Shown: positions 41,357-41,428 of the stretch, piece by piece | Layout: each line of letters opens with the position of its first letter | How positions within the stretch are numbered: position 1 is the stretch's first letter | IMG/VR virus record: IMGVR_UViG_3300032320_000315 | Location: 4,097-68,096 of that record | Source of the DNA: a virus | Lineage: Duplodnaviria > Caudoviricetes | DNA: 64,000 nt | Direction: 5' to 3' (one strand) | Translations under genes and position numbers: made by a program | Notes under the pieces: generated by a model | What the model saw: only the letters and a program-made list of their open reading frames with translations | The model's database searches: none | Told to the model about the DNA's origin: nothing

Positions 41357-41428
41357 TTACTTGTTCATTACGTACATAGTAACTTCAAAACCAAAACGCA
41401 TTTCTGTCGCACTAGGTTTAGTCCACAT
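41357..41428 (-). CDS. pqqA: PQQ precursor peptide PqqA ([23 protein letters not shown])
   Basis: 23 aa; MW.KP start, GFEVTMY (E-x3-Y) core; AGGAG RBS; own terminator; missed by ORF track. Confidence 0.93.
   Translation of the reverse strand: [23 protein letters not shown]

Follow-up and report, generated by a model that had tools for sequence, protein, structure and literature searches.

A Methylophilaceae-type pqqA gene in a jumbo myophage fragment, a probable host-derived auxiliary metabolic gene

The stretch of DNA analyzed here (64,000 nucleotides; hereafter, the window) belongs to a virus contig from IMG/VR that is 68,096 bases long and for which CheckV gives a completeness of 19%, implying a full genome of roughly 350 kb. 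The plus-strand block encodes the tail sheath, the tail tube, the large terminase, SSB and a UvsX-like recombinase, as well as two helicases, a DnaB-like helicase and a virion protein of 2262 aa. For the terminase, the identity to that of the Pseudomonas jumbo phage PA5oct is 55%, compared to 44-48% for the terminases of phages with genomes of 350-470 kb (44% in the case of the 350-kb Vibrio and Yersinia phages). This gene content, together with the kinship of the terminase, identifies the window as a fragment of a jumbo myophage genome.

On the minus strand of this fragment, a short open reading frame encodes PqqA, the precursor peptide of the PQQ cofactor. Phage-type genes on the same contig border it on either side: the gene for the virion protein ends at 40622, and phrog_1250 and GP88 are located upstream of pqqA. 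An earlier, sequence-only reading of this DNA had described the gene as phage-encoded, and its position in a record that also carries tail, terminase and replication genes bears this out. The features of the locus are the following.

41532..41807, minus strand: upstream neighbor, 91-aa ORF without a family match
41481..41489, minus strand: extended -10 element TGTTATACT, from sequence reading
41455..41475, minus strand: 8-bp stem-loop with an ACATACT / AGTATGT core, in both MFE and centroid folds
41436..41441, minus strand: Shine-Dalgarno sequence AAGGAG, 7 nt 5' of the ATG
41428..41357, minus strand: pqqA coding sequence, 23 codons plus TAA, with Glu15 and Tyr19 as the PQQ cross-link residues
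41303..41335, minus strand: intrinsic terminator with a 13-bp stem, a 3-nt loop and T6 (-17.1 kcal/mol, z -3.6)
40596..41246, minus strand: downstream neighbor, glutamine-amidotransferase-like (BPL_N / GATase_3), by Pfam match

The pqqA start lies 104 nt past the stop of the 91-aa ORF. The ATG listed for the downstream amidotransferase-like (GATase-like) gene, at 41318, falls within the stem of the pqqA terminator; the true start of this protein is probably Met25 (41246), given that most of its relatives align from query residue 25-28 and a minority from 17-22. Such relatives, 52-63% identical, are encoded on at least 598 contigs of IMG/VR, some of which span 212-367 kb.

Translation of the minus strand at 41357-41428 yields a 23-aa PqqA peptide followed by TAA, whereas the plus strand encodes no meaningful product in the same interval. 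Both curated PqqA models align with the peptide from end to end, and their scores are about twice the cut-offs (TIGR02107, 40 bits against 20, E 2.3e-10; PF08042, 43.3 bits against 21.1, E 3.2e-11). When the complete 68-kb record is searched in six frames, this is the single PqqA site detected (E 2.4e-10). Its length is within the range of about 20-40 aa that is characteristic of the PqqA family, and its core, E15-V-T-M-Y19, in which three residues separate the Glu from the Tyr, is retained in all host and viral homologs. PqqD recognizes the N-terminal leader of PqqA, including W2 and P5, and these two residues, which lie outside the search pattern described below, are invariant among 107 unique viral sequences. 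The exact peptide of the window is present in protein collections on 9 contigs. On these matches, the ORF at 41428..41357 is a genuine PqqA, of the type found in Methylophilaceae, rather than a chance ORF. The coordinates, the 23-aa peptide and the E-x3-Y pair that the sequence-only reading had given are correct, and the HMM comparison that it proposed as a check supports the assignment.

There is no linkage of this gene to pqqBCDE, either in the record or in the window; this does not exclude membership in PqqA because most of the host copies are unlinked as well. Models of PqqE and of PQQ-dependent alcohol dehydrogenases have no matches in the 68-kb record, and tblastn searches with the partial PqqB and the PqqC/D/E of a Methylophilaceae genome have none in the window, in agreement with the earlier statement that the window holds no other pqq genes. 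Further pqq or xoxF genes could lie outside the record, which itself amounts to about a fifth of the genome. Also on the minus strand, at 58700-60676, is the gene for a protein of 658 aa that combines B12-binding and radical SAM domains and for which PHROG yields no match. Among the NCBIfam families, the KedN5-type C-methyltransferases come closest, with 123 bits where 700 are required; the protein is not PqqE, and its scores are far below every family cut-off.

Around the coding sequence, the ribosome-binding site, the -10 element, the ORF and the terminator are all in place, such that the AGGAG site, the extended -10, the gene's own terminator and, hence, the self-contained unit postulated in the sequence-only reading can all be recognized. 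The AAGGAG or AGGAG motif occurs with identical spacing in the host and viral homologs. The terminator hairpin, which starts 21 nt past pqqA, is clear by folding and reappears in the fold of the whole transcript, although it was missed in the sigma-70 scan. By prediction, the transcript has the 8-bp stem-loop at its 5' end, where it presumably stabilizes the mRNA; the leader from -62 to -13 has a z of -2.1 against shuffles. An Rfam search of the 40.5-42.5 kb region produced no matches. The pqqA promoter itself has no recognizable -35 hexamer 16-18 nt from the extended -10, and for this reason is not listed in the sigma-70 scan. The 9-mer TGNTATACT is present in 11 copies in the window, compared to 3.5 expected, a number reached in none of 100 shuffles. 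Seven of the 10 other copies are, within the 45-54 kb block, the -10 elements of complete promoters (TTGACA/TTGACC-N16-18); six of these seven are on the minus strand, like pqqA, and each full promoter that bears TGNTATACT is followed, 20-35 nt downstream, by AGGAG and an ATG. The pqqA gene is located at the downstream end of this early-looking minus-strand block and has the -10 flavor in common with it. We infer that the host RNA polymerase transcribes pqqA from the predicted extended -10 promoter, with a contribution, perhaps, of read-through from the predicted promoter at 42030-42002.

The minus-strand block itself, from 43500 to 57200, contains a dense array of near-consensus sigma-70 promoters and looks like the early region of a jumbo phage. 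Promoter-like sites in the ~43.5-57 kb block number 60, against 26 +/- 5.5 in shuffles, and about 18 of the promoters match 11-12 of the 12 positions of TTGACA-N17-TATAAT or TATACT. Downstream of each promoter of the array is a small ORF whose ribosome site reads AGGAGCG, and an inverted repeat rich in CCGGT recurs on the flanks of several of the promoters. The block further includes, on the minus strand, a cluster of three tRNA genes at 44629-44871 (Arg(TCT), Leu(TAA), Met(CAT)). The G+C content is 34-39% in part of the replication/structural block (16000-36000), compared to 45-48% in the minus-strand early block (40000-56000); that of pqqA itself is 36%.

Host homologs were collected with a degenerate DNA pattern for RFGFEVTMY, which fixes nine codons and recovered at least 120 genome loci. 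The best host match shares 22 of the 23 amino acids and 91.7% of the nucleotides over the 72 nt, and the sole difference from the common host peptide is Ser6 in place of Ala6. Peptides with the C-terminal ...VMNK form found in the window come from Methylotenera, Methylophilus, Ca. Methylopumilus, uncultured Methylobacillus and unnamed Methylophilaceae MAGs, along with three more MAGs named only to a higher rank; among the matches listed, this form is absent from the Methylococcales and Methylophaga loci, where the tails are, for example, IYNR or ICNR. Because, among these matches, ...VMNK is confined to Methylophilaceae genera or to names of higher rank, the host of the phage can be predicted to the family level. 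The near-identity to Methylophilaceae PqqA stated in the sequence-only reading is thereby substantiated, and the proposed value of the gene as a host predictor holds at the family level.

All 61 sampled Methylophilaceae genomes contain pqqA, with 1-12 matches each (median 4), consistent with the published observation that these bacteria possess 3-12 copies of pqqA but a single pqqBCDE (Beck et al. 2014, PMC4109929) and with the multiple host copies mentioned in the sequence-only reading. The 1.3-Mb genome of Ca. Methylopumilus universalis has 3 copies, all distant from the single pqqE. The host copies are, for the most part, monocistrons consisting of a ribosome-binding site, the ORF and a terminator, often with a small leader hairpin, and 100 of 123 copies are followed by a terminator-like hairpin. 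The gene in the window resembles these dispersed, stand-alone host genes in sequence (22/23 residues), length (23 codons), leader hairpin, AGGAG site, an intrinsic terminator about 25 nt downstream and the lack of linkage to pqqBCDE. It differs in that it resides in a phage, behind a phage-type -10 element, and encodes Ser6, whereas all 45 such host sequences have Ala6 or one of a few other residues. The match in both sequence and architecture indicates that the phage gene is a copy of a host orphan pqqA.

Among the matches listed, the viral sequences with Ser6 number 12, namely those of 10 IMG/VR loci, Venkman and the window, and not one of the 120 host loci encodes this residue. However, position 6 is the most variable position of PqqA, with 8 different residues seen, so that Ser6 is probably neutral.

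Searches of the GenBank phage collection with blastn and tblastn, which do not depend on the pattern, identified intact homologs in 10 records. The PqqA peptide of Venkman is 100% identical to that of the window; the uncultured podovirus MW202481 from Manatee Spring shows 96% amino acid identity, P19250A and MEP301 91%, MEP401 and MEP402 87%, and the four Melnitz genomes 77%. An intact homolog is thus present in every cultured Methylophilales/Methylophilaceae phage record that the search returned. The GenBank carriers include siphoviruses, podoviruses and a T4-like myophage, and the gene neighborhoods and orientations are unrelated. The homologs in the cultured phages are, like the gene in the window, intact and 23-24 codons long, at 77-100% protein identity, but their carriers are small sipho- and podoviruses and the 141-kb T4-like Melnitz, whereas the window comes from a jumbo phage. 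The Melnitz homolog adjoins tRNA genes, those for tRNA-Leu and tRNA-Arg.

In none of these 10 GenBank records is pqqA annotated, and the point made in the sequence-only reading, that ORF calling had overlooked the gene, is true of them. The site is featureless in five of them, and in the other five, a 'hypothetical protein' is recorded under the match; in both records examined (Melnitz EXVC044M and MW202481), this overlapping protein is on the opposite strand, and the respective calls, MZ577097.1 76100-76195 and MW202481.1 2067-2195, are likely mis-annotations. The isolation papers of MEP301, Melnitz and Venkman do not mention pqqA. Given that the gene is unannotated in all 10 records, it must be undercounted by annotation pipelines and surveys of auxiliary metabolic genes.

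In IMG/VR, at least 120 contigs match the RFGFEVTMY pattern, and the viral pqqA loci fall into 16 clusters by common neighboring genes; pqqB-E are absent from the fetched flanks of the viral and phage loci. Nine of the viral loci (L154 (800-845), L188, L183, L202, L234, L236, L159, L155 and L186) share a conserved leader element about 40-90 nt upstream of pqqA, which consists of CTCAAG, a 6-bp stem and TGAnCTG, with compensatory changes at 3 pairs among the 9 sequences. This element has no Rfam match, is absent from the window, and may act on pqqA as a regulatory or processing hairpin specific to phages. In two viral contigs, matches to the ROSE_3 RNA thermometer (L188:4506-4572 and L202:1445-1510; 51.7 and 54.3 bits against a gathering threshold of 43) are located about 1.5 kb upstream of pqqA. 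Near the GATase-like gene, L269, L270, L271, L280 and L322, IMG/VR contigs of jumbo phages, one of them 367 kb long, encode a second type of viral PqqA, ...DMRFGFEITMYIANR, which presumably reflects a different host lineage.

The viral genes have diverged extensively at synonymous sites while the peptide has been maintained. The pqqA genes of the window and Venkman differ by 12 nucleotides and encode the identical peptide. With a pS of about 0.5, the 107 unique viral coding sequences are close to saturation at synonymous sites, and pN/pS is 0.26 for the 13 codons outside the search pattern; the sample having been chosen by a pattern that fixes nine codons, conservation is biased upward at those codons, and they were not counted. 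The 10 pattern-free GenBank homologs also retain the entire core. Judging from these substitution patterns in a pattern-chosen sample, viral pqqA is under purifying selection across phage lineages.

The position of the gene differs between close relatives. The closest relatives of the phage in the sample, L154 and L236 (UvsX 84-86% and SSB 68-70% identical), carry the pqqA cassette directly 5' of the SSB gene. In the window, the space upstream of SSB (11700-11842) contains only hairpins, and pqqA is 30 kb away, on the other strand. Of the at least 598 viral contigs with relatives of the GATase-like gene, the best 80 all lack pqqA at the equivalent site, and five of these encode another type of pqqA (...EITMYIANR) at some other point in the flank. 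None of these 80 contigs shares the other neighbors of pqqA with the window, which left no empty-site comparison there; this comparison was made, instead, at the SSB locus of L154 and L236. The different cassette sites in close relatives imply that the cassette moves or is acquired repeatedly.

The role of PqqA in PQQ biosynthesis is outlined in two papers (PMC7678222, PMC9851590), which name Barr et al. 2016 and Zhu and Klinman 2020 as sources for the pathway: the leader of PqqA is bound by PqqD, the Glu is joined to the Tyr by PqqE, a radical SAM enzyme, and proteolysis, PqqB and PqqC complete PQQ, such that one peptide is spent per cofactor. In the window, a host-type metabolic gene is embedded amid phage genes, and the same gene is found in complete genomes of cultured phages, as expected of an auxiliary metabolic gene. 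Accommodating these observations, we consider it probable that a stand-alone Methylophilaceae pqqA was captured and kept by a jumbo myophage as a host-derived auxiliary metabolic gene that would sustain the supply of the precursor. The host RNA polymerase would read the extended -10 promoter at the downstream end of the sigma-70-rich minus-strand block and produce a monocistronic mRNA of ~170 nt that carries a stem-loop at the 5' end and a strong Shine-Dalgarno sequence. The 23-aa peptide would then be bound by the host PqqD, cross-linked between Glu15 and Tyr19 by the host PqqE, and trimmed; PqqB and PqqC would mature the trimmed peptide into PQQ, and PQQ would be loaded into the periplasmic XoxF/MxaF methanol dehydrogenase. 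As host transcription declines, the phage copy would maintain the precursor and, hence, methanol-derived energy and carbon, and the sustained methanol metabolism would support the replication of the roughly 350-kb genome. The outcome, as proposed in the sequence-only reading, would be boosted cofactor supply and methanol oxidation during infection.

Since one peptide is used per PQQ and the host maintains 3-12 copies of the gene, a phage copy would sustain precursor supply. In a methylotroph, the expression of an orphan gene, pqqA3, tracks the rate of PQQ synthesis (PMC9851590). The numerous host copies, together with this correlation, suggest that precursor supply matters. Several considerations, however, count against the auxiliary gene explanation. 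PQQ and holo-methanol dehydrogenase are stable and already exist in the cell, and the pqqA promoter, unlike those of the neighboring genes, is an extended -10 without a -35. Furthermore, overexpression of pqq genes in engineering studies brought only modest gains (PMC9851590). A more far-reaching version, under which pqqA would be no mere occasional helper but a near-obligatory, horizontally mobile cassette of Methylophilaceae phages, equivalent in methylotrophs to cyanophage psbA, the virus-enriched Ser6 would be tuned to out-compete or bypass the host copies, and peptide supply would be a bottleneck of methanol oxidation under phage control, appears unlikely to us.

Alternatively, the gene could be a moron, that is, an intact host cassette captured recently and carried as a neutral passenger, with no benefit to the phage. 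The cassette is indeed self-contained, its site varies (upstream of SSB in L154 and L236, at 41.4 kb in the window), and the equivalent site lacks pqqA in all of the best 80 relatives of the GATase-like gene. However, a 72-nt ORF that evolves neutrally is not expected to stay open and conserved for as long as the nearly saturated pS implies, and yet pN/pS is 0.26 outside the pattern codons, and the gene is intact in at least 120 viral contigs, in about 16 contexts, as well as in every cultured methylophage returned; a purely neutral insertion is, accordingly, quite unlikely. If, instead, selection acts on an altered function, the peptide could be a competitor or decoy for the host PqqD/PqqE, or a substrate of a phage enzyme that converts it into a product other than PQQ. 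The distribution of Ser6, seen in the 12 viral sequences but in none of the 120 host loci listed, and the B12-binding radical SAM gene (58700-60676) located 17 kb from pqqA would fit such a role. Still, the phage peptide retains all residues that are conserved in host PqqA, including Glu15 and Tyr19, the substitution at the most variable position 6 is probably neutral, and the radical SAM protein is not PqqE and scores far below the family cut-offs (for KedN5, 123 against 700 bits). Moreover, SPASM radical SAM (pqqE-like) genes are absent from the fetched flanks of all phage and viral loci, and radical SAM annotations from the examined stretches of the cultured phage records. We regard an altered function as very unlikely.

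The sequence could also serve as a recombination or attachment site, with the homology to pqqA used for integration into, or exchange with, host pqqA. Each host genome would offer 3-12 dispersed, nearly identical targets, and recombinase modules adjoin the gene in several small carrier phages. Nevertheless, the best host DNA identity is only 91.7% over 72 nt, with mainly synonymous differences, the entire ORF and the ribosome site are preserved rather than the 3' core alone, family searches of the examined window proteins found no integrase, and the carriers include the T4-like myophage Melnitz and the jumbo phage of the window, all of which makes a non-coding role highly improbable. Finally, the higher G+C content of the 40-56 kb region (45-48%) compared to the structural block (34-41%) might betray a chimeric assembly or contamination of the contig by host DNA, but pqqA itself has 36% G+C and phage-type genes on both sides on one contig, and is also present in complete genomes of cultured phages, such that this artifact is hardly conceivable.

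The concept of phage pqqA has been in the literature since 2020, when PqqA and methanol dehydrogenase were reported in viruses of Lake Baikal Methylophilaceae and interpreted as auxiliary genes that enhance methanol oxidation (Coutinho et al. 2020, Microbiome 8:163; PMC7678222). Compared by description, the Baikal viral population VP_266 and the phage of the window are alike in that a PQQ precursor peptide is encoded in contigs of uncultured myophages with predicted Methylophilaceae hosts. They differ in that the Baikal contigs are T4-like, with about 35% G+C, and encode methanol dehydrogenase, whereas the phage of the window is a PA5oct-related jumbo phage with neither methanol dehydrogenase nor PqqE in its 68 kb. 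In a 2026 study of a reservoir, viral pqqA is included among phosphorus-cycling auxiliary genes (PMC13188868). Incremental, and apparently new to the literature searched, is the presence of pqqA in every cultured methylophage returned, always unannotated.

The psbA gene of cyanophages offers a parallel, by analogy only: a high-turnover component of the host is re-supplied by the phage. In both cases, a consumable, rate-relevant host component is encoded by many unrelated phages that infect a single host guild. The pathways are different, however, and the expression and benefit of psbA have been shown experimentally, whereas phage pqqA is known here from sequence.

This 72-nt ORF is a compact, reliable marker that places an otherwise unplaceable jumbo phage fragment with the Methylophilaceae, at the family level. 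If the phage gene proves to be expressed and beneficial in a cultivated phage-host system, for example OM43 strain H5P1 infected by Venkman or Melnitz, infection would be directly linked to the supply of the methanol oxidation cofactor in methylotrophs that are abundant in marine and freshwater environments.
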